DNA from: Gammaproteobacteria bacterium
Lineage (GTDB): Bacteria > Pseudomonadota > Gammaproteobacteria > GCA-001735895
NCBI GenBank assembly: GCA_030595795.1
Contig: JAUVCH010000002.1
Coordinates: forward strand, 7,216 to 71,215
Length of the DNA stretch: 64,000 nt
Direction of reading: 5' to 3'
In this document: piece by piece, positions 34,663-46,496 of the stretch
Layout of the letters: each line of letters opens with the position of its first letter
Position numbering within the stretch: position 1 is the first letter of the stretch
The notes under the pieces: model-generated
Database searches by the model: none
The model's input: the letters and a program-made list of their open reading frames with translations, nothing else
What the model was told of the DNA's origin: nothing
Translations under genes and position numbers: made by a program

Positions 34663-35541
34663 TTATTCATCTCCCCAGAGTAGTTTTCCACATTGTTCGA
34701 TTTTGTAACCGCCCAATTCGTTAGCTATCTGTAGGCCTTCTTCAGAACCGATTTTTTCGATTAGATTATGAAATAAATGCCTGAACCAGATATCGCGGGG
34801 TATCGCAAAATCGAAATGTTCCCAGCCTAGGCTGAGAAAGTCGAGGCCAAATTCGTTGGCGGTTGCACGTGAACCCAGTGCGATATCGCATTGTTGCAGG
34901 TTAATGGCTGCTGCGGCTTCGCGGTCTGAATGCGAGTGTGATTTTACGTTTAAACTATCGATGTTAAGACCGTGCTTGCTCAATATTTCTAATAAAAAGC
35001 GCTGCGAACCCGAACCCATGCGGTGAATATCCCAACTGAATTTTTGATCGAACATTTCGGGAATATCGAGACTTCGCTTCTGCGCATTAGCATCGAATAG
35101 CAAACCCTGCTCGCGTCGGTAAGCGCGGATCAGTATCCAGTTATGGCTGGCCGTATATTGCTGCAGCAGCGAGGGATGACGGGTAGCACTTTCTTTGGCG
35201 GGGCCCCAGTGTATACAACAGGCATCGACCCGATTAGCATTTAATAGTTCGAGCCCGGCGCGAGTGCTGGTATTGGTATAGGTGATGATAGCCTTGTTGC
35301 CAAGCGATTCCGAAAAGTCATTGATAATACGGTAGAGGAAAGGGTCATCACTACCGGCGATGATGAGTCGGTCACGTAGCAGACCATTGTGCGTTGAATC
35401 GAGCATCCACTTGTCGATCAACTCCTTGGGGAACATCCATTTACCGGTGATCTTGGTCGCGGGGATAATACCCCGATTGACCATGTCGTAAATTTTCTTC
35501 TCGTTTAAATGCAAATATCCCGAGACTTGTTTGACGTTCAT
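34663..35541 (-). CDS. Transcriptional regulator: excisionase-family HTH (HTH_17-like) N-terminal domain plus periplasmic-binding-protein-like (possibly ModA/TupA-type oxyanion-binding) C-terminal domain
   Basis: Start preferred at MNVKQVSGYLHLNEKKIYDMVNRGIIPATKITGKWMFPKELIDKWM (ATG 35541; ORF track gives 35583). The C-terminal 220 aa resemble a type-2 PBP fold. Divergently oriented to the FDH locus. Confidence 0.55.
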   Translation of the reverse strand: MNVKQVSGYLHLNEKKIYDMVNRGIIPATKITGKWMFPKELIDKWMLDSTHNGLLRDRLIIAGSDDPFLYRIINDFSESLGNKAIITYTNTSTRAGLELLNANRVDACCIHWGPAKESATRHPSLLQQYTASHNWILIRAYRREQGLLFDANAQKRSLDIPEMFDQKFSWDIHRMGSGSQRFLLEILSKHGLNIDSLNVKSHSHSDREAAAAINLQQCDIALGSRATANEFGLDFLSLGWEHFDFAIPRDIWFRHLFHNLIEKIGSEEGLQIANELGGYKIEQCGKLLWGDE

Positions 35542-35846
35542 GAATACGTCGATAGATTGATTTGTGATCAAGACCATAAGCATTGTTGAAGCAATAAATA
35601 TACCTGAATGAATTTTTGGGAAATAAATCTACAAGGACGGTAAGGTCTCTAGGGAAAAACGCTTTTAATGAGTTTAGATCTATTACATGTGGGTCGAATT
35701 GTCTCAACTTCACTGAGTGCCTGAGTCATTTTGTTCCAGGTTTCTGGTGGACGATGCAAATATAAAAGCTTTAATAACCCCTGGTGGCAGTGGTACGACT
35801 ATTGCAATTATGTATTGTATGAATCAGCGACTAAACAGATTGACCT

Positions 35847-36383
35847 ATGGGTGATATTCATTTGGAGGATTTTAATCAAACCCTGCCGCGGCAGAAAACT
35901 GTGTCAGCGGTAATTGAAAAGCGTGCCTCTGATAATGTCTGGTTAGACTTTACTTACAAAGCTATCGGTGTGGTGGTTGGTGAAGCTGGGCAGGAAAAGC
36001 AGGTTAAGCGGATATATCAGGACGGTAAGGTAGAGCATTTCCTGGTCACCGGGCTGGAGCTCAGGCTTCACGAAGATGAATGCGAGAGCTACTATCATAA
36101 TTTAATGTCACCGAAACCGGGTTGTTTTATCGTAGCTGAGGCCGTAGATGACCCGGATGAAATGCCGGTGCCCTACCTGGTGAGTTTGAGTTTTGATGAA
36201 GTCCATGCCTATCTCGAAGGCGACGAACAGGTTTACGCAGTAGAGATTCCCGCCGAGCTATATCAGTGGGCTGAAGCCTATGTGTTAACGCATTATGTCG
36301 CGATCAAAAAGACCAAACGAAAATTGAGGAACTGGACAGAGGAAGCCTCGGTAGCTGGAAAAGGCGCGCAAAAAACATCATGA
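35847..36383 (+). CDS. DUF3305-like protein (FDH-locus associated)
   Basis: 178 aa. First gene of the FDH-oriented block, overlaps the next gene by 4 nt. Family name recalled from memory. Confidence 0.5.
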   Translation: MGDIHLEDFNQTLPRQKTVSAVIEKRASDNVWLDFTYKAIGVVVGEAGQEKQVKRIYQDGKVEHFLVTGLELRLHEDECESYYHNLMSPKPGCFIVAEAVDDPDEMPVPYLVSLSFDEVHAYLEGDEQVYAVEIPAELYQWAEAYVLTHYVAIKKTKRKLRNWTEEASVAGKGAQKTS

Positions 36384-36967
36384 GCCAGAAGGAAGAGGAA
36401 GGCCTGTTATCGCGCTGGTCACGACGTAAATTACAAACACAGGAAGAGAGCCTCAAGGAAGAAGCAGTTTTGGCCACAGAACACCCGGATGTCGTCAATG
36501 CGATCAGTGTTGATGCGCCGCAGGCCGAAGTGCCCGACCAACCAGTTCTATCTGACGAAGATATGCCACCCATCGAATCGCTTACCGAAGACTCGGATTT
36601 TAGCGGATTCATGTCCTCAGGAGTGAGCGATAAATTACGCAATTTGGCTTTGCGAAAAATGTTTCATGCGCCGGTTTTCAATATACGTGATGGCCTCGAT
36701 GAATACGACGAAGACTATACATTTTTCGAACCGCTGGGTGATATTGTCACTTGTGATATGAAGCATCAAGTCGAAATGCTGGAGAAGAAGCGACTTGAAG
36801 AAGCGGAGCTGGAGGCGGCTGAAGAGCCAGTCGAAGCCGAGCTTGAGCCAGTCGAAGCTGAGCTTGAGCAGGCCGACGATGAGGATGATGAGCCCGAGCT
36901 TATCGACGACGAACCCGAACAACCCGAACAACCCGATCAAAGTGATATAACAGTAGAAAAATTATGA
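36380..36967 (+). CDS. DUF3306-like acidic protein (FDH-locus associated)
   Basis: 195 aa. N-terminal LSRWSRRK, very acidic C-terminal region (EAELEAAEEPVEAELEPVEAELEQADDEDDEPELIDDE). 4-nt overlap with both neighbours. Confidence 0.5.
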   Translation: MSQKEEEGLLSRWSRRKLQTQEESLKEEAVLATEHPDVVNAISVDAPQAEVPDQPVLSDEDMPPIESLTEDSDFSGFMSSGVSDKLRNLALRKMFHAPVFNIRDGLDEYDEDYTFFEPLGDIVTCDMKHQVEMLEKKRLEEAELEAAEEPVEAELEPVEAELEQADDEDDEPELIDDEPEQPEQPDQSDITVEKL

Positions 36968-38523
36968 GCCAGTCTAATCTTGATGCACGCGAATCGGCGC
37001 TTTCCGTACTCGATAGCTTTCAGACCACTGCGACCAGTCTGGTTAGCTATCAGTCTAACGGGCGAGCCATTGCCATCGGGGACGATGAGGCACTAGCCTG
37101 TTGTCGGCAATGGTCAGATCAATCCATTTTGACTCTGGTGTCTGCATCCGAGAAGGAGATTGTTGTGCAGGGTTATCTGGGTTCTTTTATTGTCAGGCTA
37201 ATTGACTCGAATGGTAACCCGCAAAATCTGGAAGCCGATATCGTGCTTGATCTAAATCCAGATCCGATAAATCAGAATGAAATATTGCCGCCAGGTTATC
37301 TACATACCTCGATAAACGAAGAAAATCAGCGCGAGGTCGAGGCACAGGTATTAGATCTGGTGGGTGAGTTCGAAAAGCCGAAATACTTTATCTATGATCC
37401 ATCGATTTGCGCGCACTCGGTGAATGGGGTCACTGTTTGCAGTCGGTGCATCGATGCCTGTCCAGCGGGTGCAATCCAAAGTGGCGGCAGTGAGATCGAA
37501 GTCGTGCCGTTTCTCTGTCAGGGTGGTGGAACCTGCGCCACGGTTTGTCCATCGGGAGCGATTCAGTACGCCTATCCGAATCTGTCGGATAGTGGTAATC
37601 AGATCCGCAAAATGTTGCAGGCTTACCGTGAAGCACAGGGAGAACGGGCTGCTGTACTATTTCATGGGGAAGCTTTTTCACCGCAGGCGTTAATGCGGCA
37701 ACACGATAATCTATTACCAGTCCGGGTTGAGGAGCTTGCCAGCGTAGGAGTCGAGTTATGTATGTCGGCACTCGCCTATGGTGCCTCTCAGGTGGTATTG
37801 ATGCTCGACGAAACAGTACCAGGGCTGTCTATAGAAAATCTTAAGCGGCAAGTCGACTGGATGCAGGTTTTGCTAAAAAGTATTGGCATTAATCCCCAGC
37901 AGATTAGCCTTCAGTCCGATTTGATGGCGTTGTCCATGATCGATTCCGCTATCGCTATTGATCCTGCTATACACAGCATGGCGGATGGTAAACGTAATGC
38001 TTTTTATCAGGCACTGGATCACCTGGTCACACAGTTCGGTTGTGCTGACGTGGTTGCTGACCTGCCCGCGGGTGCGCCATTTGGCACGGTGGTCATCGAC
38101 GAAAATAAATGCACGCTGTGCATGGCCTGTATTGGTGCTTGTCCGGGTCGAGCCTTGCAGGATGGTTCTAATCGGGAAGTGCCCGAAGTGTTTTTCATCG
38201 AGAATCATTGCATTCAATGCGGTGCCTGCACTCAGACTTGCCCGGAGCAGGCGATTACCCTGGCGCCTCGCCTCATATTTGATCGGGAAAGCAGAAATAA
38301 ATCGCAGGCGCTCAATCGTGATGAACCGTTTGGTTGTATCGAATGCGGGAAACCTTTCGCGCCGACTTCGGTGATTGAAAAAATGCTGACACAACTAGAA
38401 GACCATCATATGTTTAATACGCCTCGCGCGCTGGATCGACTGAAGATGTGCGAAGACTGTCGAGTGGTGGATATTGTCCAGGATCCAGAAGCGATGAAGG
38501 GTGATTTTGACGCACTTAATTAG
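36964..38523 (+). CDS. Multi-cluster 4Fe-4S ferredoxin-domain protein
   Basis: 519 aa with at least four CxxCxxCxxxCP motifs. Confidence 0.7.
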   Translation: MSQSNLDARESALSVLDSFQTTATSLVSYQSNGRAIAIGDDEALACCRQWSDQSILTLVSASEKEIVVQGYLGSFIVRLIDSNGNPQNLEADIVLDLNPDPINQNEILPPGYLHTSINEENQREVEAQVLDLVGEFEKPKYFIYDPSICAHSVNGVTVCSRCIDACPAGAIQSGGSEIEVVPFLCQGGGTCATVCPSGAIQYAYPNLSDSGNQIRKMLQAYREAQGERAAVLFHGEAFSPQALMRQHDNLLPVRVEELASVGVELCMSALAYGASQVVLMLDETVPGLSIENLKRQVDWMQVLLKSIGINPQQISLQSDLMALSMIDSAIAIDPAIHSMADGKRNAFYQALDHLVTQFGCADVVADLPAGAPFGTVVIDENKCTLCMACIGACPGRALQDGSNREVPEVFFIENHCIQCGACTQTCPEQAITLAPRLIFDRESRNKSQALNRDEPFGCIECGKPFAPTSVIEKMLTQLEDHHMFNTPRALDRLKMCEDCRVVDIVQDPEAMKGDFDALN

Positions 38524-38632
38524 TATGTAAGTTATTTATTACCCATTATGGTTATAAATAGTTATTATTCCCCTATATATTTTGGAATGCAGGTTGCTAT
38601 ATATTTTGGATAAAAACAATGAAACCGAAGAC

Positions 38633-39295
38633 ATGACATCAATCGCCACTGCCCTGCCTATAGAAAGTGGTTCTATAGAGGCAACCGACTTGCTGGGTGA
38701 GTGCCCAGATAGCGAGACTATTAGCGAGGAGCAGCGTTACCGTGCGTCCGCCTATGGTTTGCTGGCCGCGTTGCTACGTAGCTCTCCCGATCAGGTTATG
38801 CTCAGTCAATTGTGTGATCTTTGTGAAACTACCAGCGAAGGCGACGAGCTTATGCTGTCGATGTCGATGCTTGCGCTGGCGGCAAAGGTGCATAACGCTG
38901 AAGATGTTGAGGATGAATTTCATCAATTGTTTATCGGTTTGGGTAAGGGTGAAGTTGTCCCGTATGGATCGTGGTATTTGACCGGGTTTCTCATGGAGAA
39001 GCCGCTGAGCGATCTACGAGAAGATTTGGCGAGACTCGGTTTTGAGCGAAGTGACGATGTCGCCGAGCCGGAAGATCACGCCGCTGCGTTGTGCGAAGTG
39101 ATTTCGATCATGATCGGCGATGCGAGCGAGCTTTCGGAGCAGGATCAATTTTTTCAAACCCATATGGCCAACTGGCTGGATCGATTTTTTAATGACCTGG
39201 GTAATGCCGGTTCTGCCGTTTTTTATAAATCTGTTGCACGTTTTGGTGCCGCATTTATCGCATTGGAAAAACAGTATTTTTCCATGCAAGTATGA
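38633..39295 (+). CDS. TorD/DmsD-family redox enzyme maturation chaperone
   Basis: About 220 aa. EPEDHAAALCEVISIM motif typical of the TorD/NarJ family. Lies directly upstream of the Tat-dependent FDH catalytic subunit. ORF track start TTG 38582, ATG 38633 preferred. Confidence 0.6.
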   Translation: MTSIATALPIESGSIEATDLLGECPDSETISEEQRYRASAYGLLAALLRSSPDQVMLSQLCDLCETTSEGDELMLSMSMLALAAKVHNAEDVEDEFHQLFIGLGKGEVVPYGSWYLTGFLMEKPLSDLREDLARLGFERSDDVAEPEDHAAALCEVISIMIGDASELSEQDQFFQTHMANWLDRFFNDLGNAGSAVFYKSVARFGAAFIALEKQYFSMQV

Positions 39296-39338
39296 GTTGT
39301 TGATAGCAATCTAATCGACCTTTCGAGGGGAGTATCTG

Positions 39339-39545
39339 GTGAAAAAGACAAATGAGACGTTAAACAATAATAGACGGGATTTCATAAAGAAATCAGCTCT
39401 GGTTGGTGTGGGTGTCGCTGCCAGTACGGTCGCAAGTGGCGAGGCCATGGCGGCAGTGACGACTGACACTGTCGAAACCGGGAAAAATAAAGGCTATCAA
39501 CTAACACAACATGTTGCTGATTATTACAAATCAGCAGCAAGCTAA
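39339..39545 (+). CDS. Small twin-arginine signal protein ('formate dehydrogenase region TAT target' type)
   Basis: 68 aa, NNNRRDFIKKSALVGVGVAA Tat motif. GTG start after GAGGGGAG. Confidence 0.55.
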   Translation: MKKTNETLNNNRRDFIKKSALVGVGVAASTVASGEAMAAVTTDTVETGKNKGYQLTQHVADYYKSAAS

Positions 39546-39563
39546 ACGCGAGGAGATTGAAAT

Positions 39564-42443
39564 ATGAGTAAATTAACCAAAAAATCGAATCGCCCGGCCC
39601 AGGTCGCTTTGAAGAAGAGTCCAGGCGAAGCGATTAGTCGTCGTTCCTTTTTAAAGAATTCCAGTCTGATGGCCGGCGGCGCAGCATTAACTTCCACTGT
39701 TGCACCCGTCATGATGAAAAAAGTCCAGGCCGCTTCGGTAACCGGTGGCGATGCGGAGCAGATCAAAACCATATGCACGCACTGTTCGGTGGGTTGTGGC
39801 ATTATTGCCGAGGTGCAAAACGGAGTGTGGACGGGTCAGGAGCCTGCTTTCGACCACCCTTTTAACAAGGGCGCGCATTGTGCTAAAGGTGCTTCGATTC
39901 GCGAGCACGGCCACGGCGAGCGCCGTCTCAAATACCCAACTAAACTGGTTGGTGGCAAATGGAAGAGGGTTTCCTGGGAAGAAGCGATCAATGAGATTGG
40001 CGACAAGCTACTCGATATTCGTGAAAAATCCGGCCCCGATTCGGTTTACTGGCTAGGTTCGGCTAAACACAGTAATGAGCAGGCCTATCTGTTCCGTAAG
40101 ATGGCGGCGATGTGGGGAACCAATAATGTCGATCACCAGGCGCGAATCTGTCACTCCACTACGGTTGCCGGGGTAGCCAATACCTGGGGTTATGGTGCGA
40201 TGACCAATTCCTACAACGATATCCACTTCTCCAAATCGGTATTGTTGATCGGTTCTAATCCGGCCGAAGCGCATCCGGTGGCTTTACAGCATATTTTTAA
40301 AGCCAAGGAAGAAAATAATGCACCGATTATTGTTATCGACCCGCGTTACACTCGTACTGCCGCGCATGCCGATCATTACCTGAAAATCCGCCCTGGTACC
40401 GACGTACCGATCATCTGGGGCATGCTCTGGCACATATTCGAAAACGGTTGGGAAGATAAGGAATTTATCCGTCAGCGTGTTTACGGCCTTGACGATGTTA
40501 TGGCCGAAGTGAAGAACTGGACGCCCGATGAAGTTGAACGCGTCACTGACGTACCTGGACATCTGGTTAAGGCTGCGGCTAAGGCCATGGCCGACAATCG
40601 TCCCGGTACCTTTATCTGGTGCATGGGTGGTACTCAGCACACGGTCGGTAATAATAATACACGTGCTTATTGTGCCTTCCAGCTGGCACTTGGCAATATG
40701 GGTGTGTCTGGTGGTGGTGCGAATATTTTCCGTGGACACGATAACGTACAGGGCGCTACCGATCTGGGTGTATTGTCGAACACCTTGCCCGGTTATTACG
40801 GTCTGAGTTCGGGGTCATGGAAGCATTGGTCTCGGGTCTGGGATCTGGATTACGAATGGGTTAAAGGCCAGTTCGATGGCGGTAGCTATGAGCAGAGTAA
40901 AGGCAAGGATGTCCATGTCATGAACACCAAGGGTATTCCGGTTTCGCGCTGGATTGATGGTGTACTCGAAGAGAAATCAAATATCGCTCAGAAAGACAAT
41001 GTTAAGGCGATGATCCTCTGGGGCCATGCACCTAACAGTCAGACCCGTGGTGTGGAACAGAAAAAGGCGATGGAAAAGCTTGATTTAATGGTAGTCGTCG
41101 ATCCTTATCCAACCGTATCGGCAGTTATGCATGACCGTACCGACGGAGTGTATTTATTACCGGCCGCCACGCAAATGGAAACTTATGGATCGGTTACCGC
41201 TTCAAACCGTTCTTTCCAATGGCGTTCGAAGGTTATCGATCCATTGTTCGAGTCACTGCCAGACCATACCATCATGTATAAGCTCACCAGGAAGCTTGGT
41301 TTATCTGACCAGTTGTTTAAAAACATTAAGATTAATGGCGAGGAGCCGCTGGTCGAAGACGTGTTGCGAGAAATCAATAGTGGTATGTGGACTATCGGTT
41401 ACACAGGACAAAGTCCTGAGCGGCTGAAGAAGCATCAGGAAAACTGGGGTACCTTCGATTACGATACATTACAGGCTGAGGGCGGCCCTGCTGATGGTGA
41501 TTACTACGGGTTACCATGGCCATCCTGGGGAACACCGGAGATGAACCATCCGGGCACGCCGAATCTGTATGATACCTCTAAGTCAGTCGCTGAGGGTGGT
41601 TTGACCTTCCGTGCTCGATTCGGTGTAGAACGCGATGGCGTTAATTTGCTGGCCGAAGGTTCTTACGGTAAGGACTCGGAAATCAAAGATGGTTACCCGG
41701 AATTCAGTGATAAGATGCTGAAAAAACTGGGTTGGTGGGATGACCTGACCGCTGAAGAAAAAGCAGCAGCAGAAGGCAGAAACTGGAAAACCGATCTCTC
41801 CGGTGGCATACAACGTGTTGCGATTAAACACGGTTGTTCGCCATTTGGTAATGCCAAGGCGCGAGCGATGGTCTGGACCTTCCCGGATCCGGTACCGATT
41901 CATCGAGAGCCGCTTTATACCTCGCGGCGCGATCTGGTGGACAAGTATCCGACTTATGAAGATCGAAAATCATTCTGGAGACTGCCAACTCGGTATAAGT
42001 CTATCCAGGAGCAGGATTTCTCCAAAGACTATCCTCTTATTCTAACTTCCGGGCGACTGGTCGAGTACGAGGGTGGTGGTGATGAGACTCGCTCTAATGC
42101 CTGGCTTGCCGAGTTACAGCAGGACATGTTTGTCGAAATCCATCCGCGCGATGCCAACAACGCGGGTATTAAAGACGGCGACGACGTTTGGGTCGAAGGT
42201 GCTGAATCCGCAAAGGTTAAAGTTAAGGCACAGGTTACTCGAAGGGTCGGTTCCGGCGTGGCATTTATGCCATTCCACTTCGCTGGTCATATGCAGGGTG
42301 AAGACAGGAGCTCTAAATATCCAGAGGGTGCCGCACCGTATGTTTCGGGTGAAGCAGCCAATACTGCGATGACCTACGGTTACGACTCAGTGACACAAAT
42401 GCAAGAATCAAAATGCAGCTTGTGCCGCATTACCAAAGCTTAA
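39564..42443 (+). CDS. Formate dehydrogenase catalytic (alpha) subunit, molybdopterin, Tat-exported, Cys-type (FdnG/FdoG-like)
   Basis: 959 aa. Tat signal SRRSFLKNSSLMAGGAAL, N-terminal [4Fe-4S] motif CTHCSVGCGI. Active-site region HQARICHSTTVAG with Cys (TGT at 40150-40152) where E. coli FdnG has Sec. Confidence 0.9.
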   Translation: MSKLTKKSNRPAQVALKKSPGEAISRRSFLKNSSLMAGGAALTSTVAPVMMKKVQAASVTGGDAEQIKTICTHCSVGCGIIAEVQNGVWTGQEPAFDHPFNKGAHCAKGASIREHGHGERRLKYPTKLVGGKWKRVSWEEAINEIGDKLLDIREKSGPDSVYWLGSAKHSNEQAYLFRKMAAMWGTNNVDHQARICHSTTVAGVANTWGYGAMTNSYNDIHFSKSVLLIGSNPAEAHPVALQHIFKAKEENNAPIIVIDPRYTRTAAHADHYLKIRPGTDVPIIWGMLWHIFENGWEDKEFIRQRVYGLDDVMAEVKNWTPDEVERVTDVPGHLVKAAAKAMADNRPGTFIWCMGGTQHTVGNNNTRAYCAFQLALGNMGVSGGGANIFRGHDNVQGATDLGVLSNTLPGYYGLSSGSWKHWSRVWDLDYEWVKGQFDGGSYEQSKGKDVHVMNTKGIPVSRWIDGVLEEKSNIAQKDNVKAMILWGHAPNSQTRGVEQKKAMEKLDLMVVVDPYPTVSAVMHDRTDGVYLLPAATQMETYGSVTASNRSFQWRSKVIDPLFESLPDHTIMYKLTRKLGLSDQLFKNIKINGEEPLVEDVLREINSGMWTIGYTGQSPERLKKHQENWGTFDYDTLQAEGGPADGDYYGLPWPSWGTPEMNHPGTPNLYDTSKSVAEGGLTFRARFGVERDGVNLLAEGSYGKDSEIKDGYPEFSDKMLKKLGWWDDLTAEEKAAAEGRNWKTDLSGGIQRVAIKHGCSPFGNAKARAMVWTFPDPVPIHREPLYTSRRDLVDKYPTYEDRKSFWRLPTRYKSIQEQDFSKDYPLILTSGRLVEYEGGGDETRSNAWLAELQQDMFVEIHPRDANNAGIKDGDDVWVEGAESAKVKVKAQVTRRVGSGVAFMPFHFAGHMQGEDRSSKYPEGAAPYVSGEAANTAMTYGYDSVTQMQESKCSLCRITKA

Positions 42444-42461
42444 CTAGCGAGGAACTATAAA

Positions 42462-43055
42462 ATGGCTAGAATGAAATTTTATTGCGATGCGGAACGCTGT
42501 ATTGAGTGTAATGCCTGTGTCACCGCCTGTAAGAATGAGCACGAAATCCCCTGGGGTGTTAATCGTCGCCGTGTGGTAACGATTAAAGATGGTCAGCAGG
42601 GTGAGCGATCACTCTCGGTGGCCTGTATGCATTGTTCCGATGCACCCTGTGCGGCTGTTTGCCCTGTCGATTGTTTTTACACGACGGACGATGGTGTGGT
42701 TTTGCACGACAAGGATATCTGTATCGGTTGTGGCTACTGTTTTTACGCCTGTCCTTTTGGCGCACCACAGTTCCCCGAAAATGCTGCATTTTCGTCGCGT
42801 GGCAAAATGGATAAGTGTACTTTCTGTGCTGGTGGCCCAGAAGATGACCATAGTTCCGACGAGTACAAGAAATACGGTCGCAACCGTCTTGCCGAAGGTA
42901 AGTTGCCGCTTTGTGCTGAAATGTGTTCGACTAAGGCGCTACTGGCTGGTGATGCCAATATGCTGTCCGATATCTATCGGAAACGCATTATCAACCGTGG
43001 AGCCAGCGTACTCAATTGGGGTGTCAACTATGACAAGGTCAAGTTGAATACCTAA
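42462..43055 (+). CDS. Formate dehydrogenase iron-sulfur (beta) subunit
   Basis: 197 aa with four Cys clusters (CIECNACVTAC, CMHCSDAPCAAVCP, CIGCGYCFYACP, CTFCAGG...CAEMC). No C-terminal TM helix. Confidence 0.85.
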   Translation: MARMKFYCDAERCIECNACVTACKNEHEIPWGVNRRRVVTIKDGQQGERSLSVACMHCSDAPCAAVCPVDCFYTTDDGVVLHDKDICIGCGYCFYACPFGAPQFPENAAFSSRGKMDKCTFCAGGPEDDHSSDEYKKYGRNRLAEGKLPLCAEMCSTKALLAGDANMLSDIYRKRIINRGASVLNWGVNYDKVKLNT

Positions 43056-43156
43056 AGGGTAATCAATAATAAAATAGTTTGGCCGGGTTTTGATAATAAA
43101 AGATATCAGAACTCGGCTTGATTTTTGGCTAAGAGACAATAACGAGAGGTTGTCGC

Positions 43157-44245
43157 ATGCTTAAACAGAATATGGTCAGCCCTGTGGGAGATATCTTGAA
43201 ATTTTTATCGATATTGATGCTGCTGGTTATCACCGTCATTTCACAGCCGACATTTGCTGCTGTAGAAGGTGAACCCGAAGGTGTCATCATGAAGAATCCC
43301 GGTGCGGATTTATGGCGTGAGGTTCGGCAAAGAAATATAGCCATAGAAGGCATTAGCCAGATCAAGAGTGTCGATAGCGGAATTTTGATTAACCCAGAAG
43401 CTGACCGTTGGACCAGATTTCGAGTTGACCAGTTAGTAAACTATGCTGCAATCATATTGGCTGGATTGGCGCTATTGCTGCTAGTATTCTATTTGTTGCG
43501 CGGAAAAATAAAAGTTGAGGGTGGGCTGTCGAGACAGATGTTGCACCGATTTAGTGACTACGAGAGAGTATTACACTGGACCCTGGCGATTGTCTTCCTC
43601 TTTCTAGCTATAACGGGATTAACCCTGTTGTTAGGAAGAACTTTCCTGATCCCCCTGTTTGGACAGGAATTTTTCTCCTTACTGGCTTCGTCGAGTAAAG
43701 AAGGTCATAACTTATTCGGGCCAATTTTCTTTGCATCCCTGATAATGATGATACTTCGATTTGTGAAAAGGAATATTTATGAAAAAGGAGACCTTACCTG
43801 GCTGGTAAAAGGAGGTGGGATTATCGGCAAGTCTCATGTTTCTGGTGGATTTTTTAACATGGGTGAGAAGACCTGGTACTGGATAGTTATACTGATCGGG
43901 CTGCTTATTTCCGTCAGTGGGTTGATTCTGGTTTCCCCTAACTTTGGTCAGGGGCGAGTGATCATGGAGTTGTCACACATCGTGCATGTGATTAGTGCAA
44001 TTATTCTGATCGCGGTTTCTTTCGGACATATGTATTTGGGTTCGGTGGGTACAGAGGGCGCCCTTGAAAGCATGAAAACTGGCTACGTTGATGTTAATTG
44101 GGCAGAGTCACATCATGACCGCTGGGCAAAGGAGTGCCGCGACAATAATAGAGTGATCTCGGCCGATAAATTTAACAGGTTGCAGGGTAAGATTAACAGT
44201 GGAACGGAAGAGTCCGGCTCGGTAGCAGTGGAGGGTAATAAATAA
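43157..44245 (+). CDS. Formate dehydrogenase cytochrome b (gamma) subunit with N-terminal periplasmic extension
   Basis: 362 aa. Signal peptide plus about 90-aa extension, then a 4-TM b-type cytochrome core with conserved His (RVLHWTLA..., HIVHVISAIIL...GHMYLG). Confidence 0.8.
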   Translation: MLKQNMVSPVGDILKFLSILMLLVITVISQPTFAAVEGEPEGVIMKNPGADLWREVRQRNIAIEGISQIKSVDSGILINPEADRWTRFRVDQLVNYAAIILAGLALLLLVFYLLRGKIKVEGGLSRQMLHRFSDYERVLHWTLAIVFLFLAITGLTLLLGRTFLIPLFGQEFFSLLASSSKEGHNLFGPIFFASLIMMILRFVKRNIYEKGDLTWLVKGGGIIGKSHVSGGFFNMGEKTWYWIVILIGLLISVSGLILVSPNFGQGRVIMELSHIVHVISAIILIAVSFGHMYLGSVGTEGALESMKTGYVDVNWAESHHDRWAKECRDNNRVISADKFNRLQGKINSGTEESGSVAVEGNK

Positions 44246-44883
44246 TGGCAACTTTCATTGATGGGTTCTTGTGGTATTTTGCGCTGGCTGTTTTTGTAAT
44301 TGGGGTAAGCGGAAACCTGGTCACGATCATTCTGGCCAGTCGGAAAGTAGATTTATCGGTACCGCGCGATTCAGCTTTTTCGGGCGCCTTAAGAACCTTA
44401 TTTTCTCGCTTCCTGCCAGATCAACATATGTTGTCTCGCATCGGTATACAGGTTGTGGCGGGTTATATGTTTCATCTGGGATTATTCATCTTATTGTTTT
44501 TCGCCGCGCCGCATGTTGCTTTTCTCGAAGAAAATATTCTTGGGTTTGGCTGGACAGCGGCACCTCACTGGCTCTTTATAGTAGCGTCCCAATTTGCCTT
44601 TCTCGGCATAATCATGCTGTGGCTGTATCGTATGACGAATTCGGTATCACGGTTAATTTCAAAACTGGACGATCATGTTGCAACCATATTGACATTTCTA
44701 GTGATGCTTAGCGGTTGCCTGGCATTGCTGGAGTCGTTCGAAACATTGCGCCTACTACACCGGTTTCTAGTTGAGTTACTGTTAATTTATTTCCCCTTTA
44801 GCCGTTTAATGCATGCATTTACTTTTGTTCCTAGTCGGCTTTTCACCGGTGCATGGTTTGGCCGAAGAGGTGTTGATTCATGA
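44245..44883 (+). CDS. NarI-fold membrane cytochrome b (DsrM/HdrE/HmeC-like)
   Basis: 212 aa, 5 TM helices, His in TM2 (MFHLG, PHVAF) and the C-terminal PFSRLMHAF motif matching the NarI-family PF(T/S)RLVH heme-ligand motif. Start overlaps the stop of fdh-gamma (ATAATGG). Confidence 0.6.
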   Translation: MATFIDGFLWYFALAVFVIGVSGNLVTIILASRKVDLSVPRDSAFSGALRTLFSRFLPDQHMLSRIGIQVVAGYMFHLGLFILLFFAAPHVAFLEENILGFGWTAAPHWLFIVASQFAFLGIIMLWLYRMTNSVSRLISKLDDHVATILTFLVMLSGCLALLESFETLRLLHRFLVELLLIYFPFSRLMHAFTFVPSRLFTGAWFGRRGVDS

Positions 44884-44899
44884 TAACCGGAGGTCAACT

Positions 44900-46168
44900 A
44901 TGAGTGAGAGACTGGAACGAGGCCTTAGTAAGCTAAGGTCTCAAATTGATCCAAAGGTTAAATCGTTTTTCTCGAGCTGTGTGCACTGTGGAATTTGTGC
45001 AGAATCCTGTTTGTTTTTTACTGAAACCCGTGATCCTCGCTATACACCTATTTATAAAACCGAGCCATTGCGTAAGGTCTGGCAACAGGAATATACGTTC
45101 TGGGGAAAGTTAGCCAGTAAGTTGGGGATAGCAGCGCCGATAGCAGAGCAGGATTTAGCCGACTGGGAGGAACTGGTTTACGATGGTTGCTCGATGTGCG
45201 GTCGCTGTAGCATGGTTTGCCCAATGGGTATAGATATTGCGCAGATTATCTTCAAGGTCAAAACTGGTCTGTCGGCGGCAGGATTCTCGCCACCAGATCT
45301 TGCCGAAACCACTCAACGTGCAGTCGATATTGGTAGCCCGATGGGTGTGAAGCTCCCCGCATTGCAAGCTCAAATAGGCCATATCGAAGAAGAAATAAAT
45401 TTAAAAATCCCGGTCGATGTCGAAGGGTCAGAGTATATGGCGCTGCTGTCGTCGATGGAAATTATGTATTTCCCGGAGTATATTTCGGCCCTTGCAAAAA
45501 TATTCCATCAGGCTGGCGTTAGCTGGACACTTTGCTCCGATGCGTTTGAGGCAACAAACTCCGGTCTGCAAATTGGTAATACCGAGGTAGCCGGGGTTTT
45601 GGTCGAAAGGATTGTTGCCGGTGCCGAGAAGCTGAAGGTGAAAAACGTGATTAGCCCGGAATGCGGTCACGCTTATACAGCGATTCGATGGGAGGGGCCT
45701 AATTTCATCGGCAGACCTTATTCCTTTAAAGTCGTGCATATCCTGGAACTACTCGACGAACTACTCCAGTCAGGCCGTCTGAAAACAACGGGTAAGGAAT
45801 CTTCTCGACTCACTTTTCACGATCCGTGTTCTATCGTGCGTAGGGGTGGGGTTGAGACGCAACCACGTCATATATTAAATGCTATAGCAGAAAATGCGGT
45901 TGAAATGACCGAGCACGGTGCTATGAACTGGTGCTGTGGCGGTGGTGGTGGCGTCAGTGGCAATGAAAGAGCAGAGCCGCTAAAACTAAAAGTCTTTAAC
46001 CGAAAAAAATCACAGCTCGAGGAGCTTGATGTTGAAACTATTGTAACTTCCTGTTCCAATTGCCGATTGGTCATCGAAGATGGTCTGGAAGCAAATGATA
46101 TGGAAATTAATATAGTCGGTTTAACCGAAATGCTTGCTGACCACCTGGTTGTAGATAATTCTCAATAG
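44900..46168 (+). CDS. CCG-domain iron-sulfur oxidoreductase (HdrD/DsrK/GlpC-like)
   Basis: About 420 aa. Two ferredoxin-like motifs (CVHCGICAESC, CSMCGRCSMVCP) followed by Cys-rich CCG-type regions (HDPCS..., NWCCGGGGG, TSCSNCR). ATG 44900 after GGAGG; ORF track start 44813 overlaps the upstream gene. Confidence 0.7.
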   Translation: MSERLERGLSKLRSQIDPKVKSFFSSCVHCGICAESCLFFTETRDPRYTPIYKTEPLRKVWQQEYTFWGKLASKLGIAAPIAEQDLADWEELVYDGCSMCGRCSMVCPMGIDIAQIIFKVKTGLSAAGFSPPDLAETTQRAVDIGSPMGVKLPALQAQIGHIEEEINLKIPVDVEGSEYMALLSSMEIMYFPEYISALAKIFHQAGVSWTLCSDAFEATNSGLQIGNTEVAGVLVERIVAGAEKLKVKNVISPECGHAYTAIRWEGPNFIGRPYSFKVVHILELLDELLQSGRLKTTGKESSRLTFHDPCSIVRRGGVETQPRHILNAIAENAVEMTEHGAMNWCCGGGGGVSGNERAEPLKLKVFNRKKSQLEELDVETIVTSCSNCRLVIEDGLEANDMEINIVGLTEMLADHLVVDNSQ

Positions 46169-46184
46169 GTTCAGATTATAGTAT

Positions 46185-46496
46185 ATGAATGATCAGGAAA
46201 TGGGTGACGAAGAGCTAGATGTACAATACCGTGCGATGATCGACCAGTTTATCGATCAATCCAATCAATTTGCTGAAACTAATAGCCCGGAGAATGTCGG
46301 TATGGCGCTCTTATTTGCGGCTTCTCGGTTTAATGCTTTTGTGGTTTCGCAGCACGCGGAATCATTAGCAGATTATGAAAAAGACCTTGGTAAAGCGAAG
46401 TCGTTTTTCTCGACACAATACGGGGAAATGCTCGACGAAAATCTGGATGATTACAAAAAAACATACGATAAGTATCACCAGTTTATGAAACAGTAG
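46185..46496 (+). CDS. Small acidic cytoplasmic protein (DUF3144-like)
   Basis: 103-aa ORF 17 nt downstream of the HdrD-like gene. Family assignment from memory is weak. Confidence 0.4.
   Translation: MNDQEMGDEELDVQYRAMIDQFIDQSNQFAETNSPENVGMALLFAASRFNAFVVSQHAESLADYEKDLGKAKSFFSTQYGEMLDENLDDYKKTYDKYHQFMKQ

Follow-up and report, generated by a model that had tools for sequence, protein, structure and literature searches.

Isp1/Isp2-like membrane and iron-sulfur subunits encoded at the 3' end of a periplasmic formate dehydrogenase operon

We analyzed a 64,000-nucleotide stretch of the genome of a gammaproteobacterium (GenBank assembly GCA_030595795.1, contig JAUVCH010000002.1, positions 7,216 to 71,215 of the forward strand), referred to here as the window, in which a formate dehydrogenase (FDH) operon continues beyond its cytochrome b gene into two further genes, one for a membrane protein and one for an iron-sulfur (Fe-S) protein with a CCG domain. 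We designate these two products Isp1-like and Isp2-like, after the hydrogenase-associated proteins discussed below. The + strand from 35847 to 46496 is a single close-packed gene array that runs from a DUF3305 gene to a DUF3144 gene, and the five genes of chief concern are the following.

39564-42443, + strand: FdhA, periplasmic Mo/W-bisPGD catalytic subunit (Tat motif RRSFLK, active-site motif ARICHS)
42462-43055, + strand: FdhB, four-cluster Fe-S subunit (NCBIfam FDH3_beta, 344.8 bits; cutoff, 240)
43157-44245, + strand: FdhC, FdnI-type diheme cytochrome b (TIGR01583, 167.5 bits; cutoff, 115.85)
44245-44883, + strand: Isp1-like membrane subunit, 212 amino acids (NCBIfam TmcC, E value of 1.9e-21, full length)
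44900-46168, + strand: Isp2-like cytoplasmic Fe-S subunit, 422 amino acids (Pfam CCG, E value of 1.4e-15, and Fer4_8)

The first three products have the makeup of a respiratory periplasmic FDH, namely, a Tat-exported alpha subunit, a four-cluster beta subunit, and a cytochrome b gamma subunit, with the alpha subunit scoring under its equivalog cutoff (TIGR01591, 483 bits; cutoff, 666). FdhA carries the Pfam domains Molybdopterin, Molydop_binding, and Molybdop_Fe4S4, and its ARICHS motif marks it as a Cys-type enzyme. FdhC has an N-terminal signal, a periplasmic segment, and an extra transmembrane (TM) helix. No hydrogenase genes were found in the operon; the isp-like pair is instead placed after fdhC. 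As the original prediction had stated, both genes of the pair are present on the + strand in this position, profile matches and motifs place them, at the superfamily level, with NarI-type diheme cytochromes b and HdrD/DsrK-like CCG proteins, and the pair is attached to the FDH operon. The ATG of the isp1-like gene (44245-44247) and the TAA of fdhC (44243-44245) have one base in common. The overlapping start mentioned in the original prediction applies to this fdhC/isp1-like junction but not to the isp1-like and isp2-like genes. The mechanical open reading frame (ORF) for the CCG gene spans 44813-46168 (451 amino acids), and we dropped its start in favor of the ATG at 44900; because this ATG sits six bases 3' of a GGAGG (44889-44893) and yields a protein of 422 amino acids, the length of nearly all homologues, it is likely the true start, and the two genes therefore do not overlap. 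Two further ORFs that overlap the pair, at 44271-44711 (+) and 45428-45739 (-), are alternative frames of the two conserved genes.

The Isp1-like protein also matches NCBIfam HmcE over its full length (E value of 3.4e-17), with the TmcC and HmcE matches both under their curated cutoffs, and it matches Pfam Nitrate_red_gam weakly (17.1 bits; cutoff, 22.9). Four histidines (H77, H90, H172, and H190) are invariant in 73/73 Isp1 homologues of both the FDH-linked and the hydrogenase (Hyn) kinds, and their spacing and positions fit two predicted bis-His hemes on TM2 and TM5, as in NarI. We read the protein as a NarI/TmcC-type cytochrome with five predicted TM helices and two b hemes. An AlphaFold model based on a 33-sequence alignment was of medium confidence (pLDDT 66). 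Its top nine Foldseek matches were E. coli NarI and the NarI-like domain of M. smegmatis EtfD, the NarI matches having a TM score of about 0.5, a probability of 1.0, and E values of 0.07 to 0.3, and a clear gap followed; this fold match is suggestive and not decisive. A PDB sequence search with the protein returned nothing meaningful. Three other residues, H108, H144, and C158, located at the ends of TM3 and TM4 and within TM4, are invariant in all Isp1-like proteins linked to a cytochrome b (those found with FDH and those found with multiheme cytochromes), where the Isp1 proteins of Hyn operons have S/N, Y, and Y. These residues could form an extra ligand set, a quinone site, or a docking surface for the cytochrome b.

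The Isp2-like protein contains two [4Fe-4S] motifs of the form CxxCxxCxxxC, an extra cysteine at C255, and a CCG motif made up of C310, C345, C346, C385, and C388. All 14 cysteines are invariant in 76 close homologues, and all are found in a genuine DsrK too. The best NCBIfam scores were those for DsrK (239.8 bits), TmcB (226.6 bits), and HmcF (219.9 bits), all far under the respective cutoffs, and the sole match in a PDB search was an EtfD-like protein of M. smegmatis (9ojn_A; E value of 1e-16). Public annotations name the CCG subunit "(Fe-S)-binding protein" or "Fe-S oxidoreductase" and the membrane subunit "hypothetical protein" or "nitrate reductase gamma subunit." In a Thiomicrorhabdus metagenome-assembled genome (MAG) (locus L021:9992-11653), the Isp2-like protein has a C-terminal extension of ~130 amino acids, comprising a Ser-rich linker and a helix-hairpin-helix-like segment (IEGIGPKIEE...).

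Sequence comparison identifies the pair as paralogues of Isp1 and Isp2, which are encoded between hynS and hynL in the Isp-type [NiFe] hydrogenases. We scanned one genome per species for relatives of the CCG protein, found 558, and surveyed the best 80 loci (L numbers below denote these and some further loci). In 49 of these 80, the gene order was hynS-isp1-isp2-hynL, with HupH and HycI genes upstream, and the CCG protein was 64 to 67% identical to that of the window. This order is diagnostic of Isp-type [NiFe] hydrogenases (PMC2621215, PMC10892978). Across Isp2 proteins from 48 such loci, identity to the window protein was 59 to 74%, and the 14 invariant cysteines were common to all. We built neighbor-joining trees with 20 representatives of the wider superfamily as the outgroup and later with 6. 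The CCG proteins of FDH-linked, multiheme cytochrome-linked, and Hyn loci formed a single clade in 100% of 200 bootstraps. Only three fixed differences, all conservative (K59R, K121R, and L223I), separate the FDH-type from the Hyn-type Isp2 proteins, and judging from this comparison, the cytoplasmic-side chemistry is the same in both. The bona fide Isp2 of "Ca. Thiodiazotropha endolucinida" also gave the same NCBIfam profile as the window protein (DsrK, 239.5 versus 239.8 bits); NCBIfam holds no dedicated curated model for Isp2. Since the Hyn Isp2 proteins are all about equidistant from the FDH-type CCG clade (61 to 66%), we do not claim that this clade is nested inside Hyn Isp2.

The original prediction had named DsrMK and HdrDE as the closest kin of the pair, and this assignment gives way to Isp1/Isp2. 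The pair is like DsrMK in superfamily, in architecture, and in having the CCG domain and both ferredoxin motifs; moreover, the substrate of DsrK is DsrC, and DsrC-family genes adjoin some Isp-type modules. It is unlike DsrMK in that the CCG protein is only 28 to 31% identical to a true DsrK representative (P0150; 451 bits against a cutoff of 400), the scores are under the cutoffs (DsrK, 239.8 against 400 bits; DsrM, 22.7 against 300), and no dsrJOP, dsrAB, or dsrC genes were found in the 64-kb window. Membership in HdrDE was rejected on the HdrB model (22 bits; cutoff, 345) and the HdrC model (17 bits; cutoff, 160), and the acceptor of the window module would not be CoM-S-S-CoB. TmcBC and HmcEF of Desulfovibrio provide the best curated models for the membrane subunit, and they likewise link periplasmic hydrogen or formate oxidation to the cytoplasm. 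Both were nevertheless rejected by score (TmcC, 76.6 against 240 bits; TmcB, 226.6 against 735; HmcE, 62.8 against 275; HmcF, 219.9 against 750). Unlike those systems, the window operon contains no cytochrome c gene and thus lacks a TmcA/HmcA multiheme partner, its donor contact being a cytochrome b. Finally, the CCG protein does not group with substrate dehydrogenase subunits, a possibility that the original prediction had raised against itself: GlpC, GlcF, and LutB models scored 50, 36, and 32 bits (cutoffs, 278, 333, and 445) against 240 for DsrK, and the window operon has no flavoprotein dehydrogenase partner genes of the GlpC/GlcF/LutA type.

The linkage to FDH recurs. FDH genes lie directly upstream of the pair in 23 of the 31 non-Hyn loci, as a full operon from DUF3305 to FdhC in 16 of these 23; 2 more of the 31, on short contigs, have an FdhC-type cytochrome b upstream, and 4 contigs are too short to reveal the upstream genes. 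An additional full FDH-isp operon lies on a 2.6-Mb scaffold (L082). In all, at least 23 species-level genomes have the FDH-type arrangement, as does a distant lineage (L087 and L088) whose CCG protein is 37% identical to that of the window. The carriers include the Gamma 3 symbiont of Olavius algarvensis, a Thiomicrorhabdus MAG, and many sediment Gammaproteobacteria, and many are named sulfur-oxidizing symbionts or relatives of these; a check for such recurrence had been proposed with the original prediction. In public data, FdhC, Isp1-like, and Isp2-like each have more than 120 clusters at 61% identity or more, a recurrence well beyond chance; the FdhC homologue search returned close relatives alone (at least 61% identity). 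Among the nearest 50%-identity cluster representatives of the wider family (P numbers), P0121 (51% identity) belongs to another trio of cytochrome b, Isp1, and Isp2; P0127, P0130, P0134, and P0137 belong to hynS-isp1-isp2-hynL operons of other lineages; and P0128 (37% identity) lies in an array encoding DUF3306, TorD, TAT target, FdhA, FdhB, cytochrome b, a 216-amino-acid membrane protein, and the CCG protein. This diverged second FDH-linked lineage indicates that the linkage is old or recurrent and is not a single recent accident. At L087:1-8338 (and in L088), FdhA is 70% and the CCG protein 37% identical to the window protein, and the cytochrome b has 413 amino acids.

The pair predicted originally is real, but the unit added to the FDH appears to comprise three genes. 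In 24 of 28 loci, the isp1-like gene starts within the stop codon of the cytochrome b gene or overlaps it, much as isp1 overlaps hynS in Hyn operons. In L012 and L014, the trio lies 3' of genes for a 489-amino-acid multiheme cytochrome c, a TPR protein, and an NlpE_C protein, and in L019 (8235-11287) it stands by itself, beside heat shock and thioredoxin-like genes. The hosts of the multiheme-linked trio (L014:5573-11278) are a Cocleimonas MAG and a relative, and the cytochrome weakly matches the HAO/hydrazine dehydrogenase family. In two further loci (L016:7030-9350 and L029:652-2925), fdhB is separated from the isp1-like gene by two tandem genes for FdhC-type cytochromes b, which share 41 to 44% identity; the window FdhC is 59 to 63% identical to the second, Isp-adjacent copy and 41 to 44% identical to the first. 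The window FdhC thus belongs to the subtype that always precedes isp1-like genes. Because of these stop/start overlaps, and because the trio occurs with a multiheme cytochrome, alone, or after a separate FdhC, the added unit is best described from gene order as FdhC-type cytochrome b, Isp1-like, and Isp2-like.

The two subunits of the pair have had different histories. Identities of the window proteins to three reference groups were as follows.

Gammaproteobacterial Hyn Isp2/Isp1: CCG subunit, 65%; membrane subunit, 33%
Distant FDH-linked locus L087: CCG subunit, 37%; membrane subunit, 46%
Cytochrome b-linked locus L084: CCG subunit, 49%; membrane subunit, 55%

Bootstrap support in neighbor-joining trees was likewise reversed between the subunits: a group of FDH-linked, multiheme-linked, and gammaproteobacterial Hyn sequences received 100% in the CCG tree and 0% in the membrane subunit tree, whereas a group of all cytochrome b-linked sequences received 0% in the former and 100% in the latter. 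The history of the membrane subunit tracks the donor, be it cytochrome b or HynS, and that of the cytoplasmic subunit tracks the host lineage. This pattern suggests that direct contact with the donor has shaped the membrane subunit and that the cytoplasmic subunit has instead adapted to a host-specific partner in the cytoplasm, common to the formate and hydrogen systems. Genomes with both systems are represented by L004 and L078 (on one contig), L006/L076, L005/L037, and L028/L074.

The neighborhoods of related loci provide a lead to that partner. With the DsrC of L093 as the query, we found a DsrC-family gene (105 bits for PF04358; 101 bits for TIGR03342, cutoff of 53.5) immediately 3' of several loci, its product ending in an unusual C terminus, GGCKLACKIAGLPDCHCRG(L/V). 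The DsrC-like gene is preceded by a gene for a conserved protein of ~150 amino acids, here called p150, which has conserved cysteines in the motifs TYTACG, KACLTP, and NC.MIE and which matched no Pfam or NCBIfam family. These genes lie 17 to 128 nucleotides past the operon end, on the same strand, in both FDH and Hyn types, with the following distribution.

FDH-type, p150 alone: L004 (full fdh operon)
FDH-type, p150 and DsrC-like: L005, L011
Hyn-type, p150 alone: L040, L067, L078
Hyn-type, p150 and DsrC-like: L045, L062, L066, L074, L076, L079
Positions of p150/DsrC-like genes: L004:11388-11816; L005:1428-2315; L011:1390-2157; L066:13050-13885

One genome has p150 behind operons of both types (L004 and L078). 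In L045, L066, and L074, a gene for a pentapeptide repeat protein follows the p150/DsrC-like pair. A more distant relative (P0132; 34% identity) is part of a trio of genes for DsrC, a membrane protein, and a CCG protein. In another distant lineage (L085:3596-11689), an Isp hydrogenase operon lies among genes for TusA, DsrE2, DsrE, and a GcvH-like, possibly lipoate-binding protein, followed by lipoate-protein ligase (LplA), a set which resembles the sulfur carrier and lipoate-binding accessory genes associated with sulfur-oxidizing Hdr-like systems. The same operon adjoins V-type ATPase genes.

We tentatively favor a formate-driven transmembrane electron route, suggested by sequence comparison and by analogy, in which FdhC, Isp1-like, and Isp2-like would pass electrons to a cytoplasmic acceptor of the DsrC or thiol/disulfide type. 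By analogy with FDH-N, Tat-exported FdhAB would oxidize periplasmic formate and deliver the electrons to the hemes of FdhC, from which quinone could be reduced as in any FDH-N-type enzyme. A second path would lead across the membrane by way of the physically associated Isp1-like subunit and would end at the Fe-S clusters and the CCG site of Isp2-like, which would reduce a thiol/disulfide-type acceptor, most likely a sulfur carrier of the DsrC family; the reaction at the CCG site would most plausibly be the reduction of a disulfide, trisulfide, or persulfide of a DsrC-type protein. With protons released outside and taken up inside, such a route would conserve energy and would be the formate counterpart of the hydrogen-dependent sulfur reduction by Isp-type Hyn hydrogenases. 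That the three subunits act as one complex is suggested because Isp1-like is translationally coupled to and coevolves with the donor, because Isp2-like is practically identical to the Isp2 that serves hydrogenases, and because the trio exists as an independent unit. Assembly into a complex, the direction in which electrons flow, avoidance of the quinone pool, and the nature of the acceptor are all inferred. The formate and hydrogen systems probably deliver electrons to one common acceptor in the cytoplasm, which may be a sulfur carrier resembling DsrC: Isp2 is shared across donors, the membrane subunit follows the donor, and DsrC-family and p150 genes lie behind operons of both types, which together point to a donor-independent acceptor and name a candidate for it. 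The physiology of known Isp relatives fits such a mechanism, as the Isp-type enzyme of Thiocapsa reduces elemental sulfur (S0) with hydrogen in the dark (PMC10892978).

A broader version of this proposal, which we regard as doubtful, is that the trio is a portable, donor-independent "electron import" module of marine sulfur-storing Gammaproteobacteria, with a DsrC-family carrier and p150 as the acceptor. Its donors would be formate, hydrogen by way of the HynS-docking version, and multiheme cytochromes, and the cytoplasmic subunit would be exchanged or homogenized between formate and hydrogen versions within host lineages. If that were true, the module would constitute an undescribed respiratory chain from formate to protein-bound (poly)sulfide.

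Several points weigh against a direct formate-to-sulfur-carrier route. Only 3 of 26 FDH-type loci have p150/DsrC-like genes next to them, as do only 9 of 38 Hyn loci, and two of the three FDH-type cases (L005 and L011) are short contigs assigned to that type by 75% CCG identity only. In related loci, dsrC- and tusA-like neighbors such as those that the original prediction proposed to look for do occur, but in the window itself tblastn found no genes for DsrC-like, p150, TusA, DsrE, or GcvH-like proteins. The gene 3' of the window CCG gene encodes instead a Cys-free DUF3144 protein, to which p150 is unrelated (hhalign probability, 2%). The remaining window genes encode transporters, a GMC oxidoreductase, a cyclase, and similar products, with no sulfur genes among them, and nothing within the 64 kb shows the host to be a sulfur oxidizer. 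The trees are neighbor-joining trees with few distant taxa. FdhC is equipped to reduce quinone on its own, and the pair might communicate with it solely through the quinone pool. CCG domains are not always those of disulfide reductases, as seen in GlpC, LutA, and EtfD-type proteins. Lastly, even for hydrogenases, the accounts of Isp2 are only sequence-based descriptions and an AlphaFold-derived bifurcation proposal (10.1101/2022.12.13.520232, PMC10892978).

Communication through the pool would make the system a serial redox loop, which is the route originally predicted and which we consider unlikely: FdhABC would reduce free quinone, and the Isp1/Isp2-like pair, as a separate quinol:acceptor oxidoreductase, would reoxidize the quinol at the periplasmic face and reduce a cytoplasmic disulfide, as do periplasmic Vht hydrogenase plus HdrDE in Methanosarcina or DsrMK in sulfate reducers. 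FdhC is a complete FdnI-type quinone reductase, and the FDH of L016 and L029 has an FdhC of its own besides the Isp-adjacent cytochrome b; both facts agree with such a loop. A diffusible quinone alone, however, requires neither codivergence of the membrane subunit with its donor nor translational coupling to a dedicated cytochrome b subtype, and the fact that the membrane subunit has coevolved with its donor speaks rather for a physical complex. Gammaproteobacteria usually employ ubiquinone, and electron transfer from ubiquinol to a disulfide is uphill; the same doubt has been raised even for transfer from menaquinol to DsrC (PMC3949148). The pair does belong to the HdrDE/DsrMK/TmcBC superfamily, whose described role is oxidation of quinol or methanophenazine coupled to disulfide reduction (PMC3949148). 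A serial route is the textbook role of HdrDE and DsrMK, but it fits less well with the donor-specific divergence and with the unfavorable energetics of quinol-to-disulfide transfer.

Electron bifurcation at an Isp1 quinone site has been proposed for archaeal Isp hydrogenases on the basis of AlphaFold models (10.1101/2022.12.13.520232, PMC11018855). In the window system, one electron would go to high-potential quinone and one through Isp2 to a low-potential acceptor in the cytoplasm (ferredoxin or NAD+), which would provide reductant for CO2 fixation without reverse electron transport. That a near-identical Isp2 serves two donors of almost equal low potential, hydrogen and formate, is consistent with this scheme. 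Pfam and NCBIfam searches nevertheless revealed no flavin or ferredoxin/NAD-binding domain in Isp2 or its conserved neighbors, and the gene neighborhoods hint at DsrC, TusA, and DsrE carriers rather than ferredoxin, and we consider bifurcation here to be improbable.

A further reading that we would give little chance is that electrons flow in reverse, with Isp2 oxidizing a cytoplasmic thiol or persulfide carrier, the direction ascribed to DsrMK in sulfur oxidizers, and passing the electrons through Isp1 to quinone or to FdhC, in which case cotranscription with FDH would only reflect a shared membrane partner or the periplasmic reduction of CO2 under conditions of excess reductant. HydDB lists group 1e as "physiologically reversible," the Hyn enzyme of Thiocapsa evolves hydrogen in thiosulfate-grown cells (PMC3325256), and the naming of many carriers as sulfur-oxidizing symbionts or their relatives agrees with it as well. 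The FDH, on the other hand, is of the standard Tat-exported respiratory type with a quinone-reducing gamma subunit, and periplasmic reduction of CO2 to formate would be without obvious benefit. That two unrelated genes merely happen to follow fdhC is extremely improbable, given that the order is kept in at least 23 species-level genomes plus a lineage with a 37% identical CCG protein and that 24 of 28 loci show the stop/start overlap.

The preferred arrangement, an Isp-type route out of a periplasmic FDH, can be set against described systems. The Isp1/Isp2 proteins of group 1e hydrogenases (Thiocapsa, Allochromatium, Aquifex, and Acidithiobacillus) and of archaeal group 1g enzymes, from operons of the order hynS-isp1-isp2-hynL, resemble the window pair in that a b-type cytochrome and an HdrD-like Fe-S protein are joined to a Tat-exported periplasmic enzyme that oxidizes a low-potential donor; the four predicted heme-ligand histidines, the 14 cysteines, and, in some loci, the p150/DsrC-like genes downstream are also alike. 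The donor in the window is an FDH rather than a hydrogenase, and the genes close the operon, behind that for an FdnI-type cytochrome b, rather than lying between the two genes for catalytic subunits. The membrane subunit, at ~33% identity to Hyn Isp1, falls in a separate cytochrome b-linked clade characterized by H108, H144, and C158. The best functional analogy is HdrDE together with Vht (VhtGAC) of Methanosarcina, a redox loop comprising a periplasmic enzyme with a cytochrome b, a NarI-like b subunit, and a CCG protein by which a cytoplasmic disulfide is reduced (PMC3949148); there, Vht and HdrDE are separately encoded and linked by methanophenazine, whereas in the window three genes are joined to the FDH operon. 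The FdhA, FdhB, FdhC, and accessory genes match FDH-N (FdnGHI) and the operon type with DUF3305, DUF3306, TorD, and TAT target genes, but described FDHs of that type stop at the gamma subunit, and in the window two further genes are translationally coupled to it.

In the open-access literature, we found no paper linking isp1/isp2 or HdrD/DsrK-like pairs with a bacterial periplasmic FDH, in agreement with the original view that the linkage had not been described. What is new, by sequence comparison, is that an Isp/HdrDE-type module has been recruited, by way of an added cytochrome b, to another kind of periplasmic enzyme. The isp genes were previously believed to be exclusive to two hydrogenase subgroups, and published accounts of Isp1/Isp2 are sequence- or AlphaFold-based descriptions that name no acceptor for Isp2 (10.1101/2022.12.13.520232, PMC10892978). 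A near-identical Isp2 is now found to serve an FDH and also a multiheme cytochrome, and the question of its acceptor thereby becomes testable. Among Gammaproteobacteria of marine sediments and symbioses the module is abundant, with hundreds of protein clusters, and as a result of the generic annotations of its subunits, metabolic reconstructions of these organisms miss a possible electron route from formate to sulfur or to the cytoplasm.

The other features at and around the operon were as follows.

34663-35583, - strand: divergent regulator with HTH_17 and PBP_like domains (Pfam); L082 has the same gene in the same position
35847-36383, + strand: DUF3305 accessory protein (Pfam PF11749, E value of 1.7e-34), found upstream in at least 15 FDH loci
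36380-36967, + strand: DUF3306 accessory protein (Pfam PF11748, E value of 3.7e-28), synteny conserved
36964-38523, + strand: accessory poly-ferredoxin, 519 amino acids, without a signal peptide (multiple Fer4 families), synteny conserved
38582-39295, + strand: TorD/NarJ-family chaperone for a Tat-exported molybdoenzyme (Nitrate_red_del, E value of 1.9e-29; NCBIfam TorD, E value of 1.3e-16)
39339-39545, + strand: 68-amino-acid twin-arginine "formate dehydrogenase region TAT target" (TIGR02811, 51.8 bits; cutoff, 48.45)
43081-43118, + strand: strong terminator-like hairpin, a 15-bp stem followed by a T-run, inside the 101-nucleotide fdhB-fdhC spacer (consensus scan)
46185-46496, + strand: DUF3144 protein, 103 amino acids, acidic and Cys-free (Pfam PF11342, E value of 1.1e-20)

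An Rfam scan of the whole window gave no match and, in particular, no molybdenum cofactor (Moco) riboswitch. ORFs as short as that for the TAT target, which lies between the torD-like gene and fdhA, are easily skipped by ORF length filters; equivalent small ORFs were present in L082 and L087 as well. The hairpin sits within what otherwise appears to be one operon, and a spacer is always present between fdhB and the cytochrome b gene across the loci; the hairpin may serve as a boundary or as an attenuator that sets fdhAB apart from the three genes of the membrane module. Of 26 FDH- or multiheme cytochrome-type loci, 13 have a DUF3144 gene behind that for the CCG protein and in the same orientation, whereas such a gene never follows the Hyn loci; our literature search found no paper mentioning the family. 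In 14 Hyn loci of the "Ca. Thiodiazotropha" type (L080:13377-15114 and 13 others), a cytochrome b561-family gene follows hynL, mostly with DUF1924 and diheme cytochrome c genes, as a second membrane/periplasmic electron transfer set besides Isp1/Isp2. The HTH_17/PBP_like protein possibly regulates the FDH operon, perhaps in response to an oxyanion (molybdate or tungstate, for example). The FDH locus of L087 adjoins genes for an ABC transporter with a PBP_like_2 binding protein.

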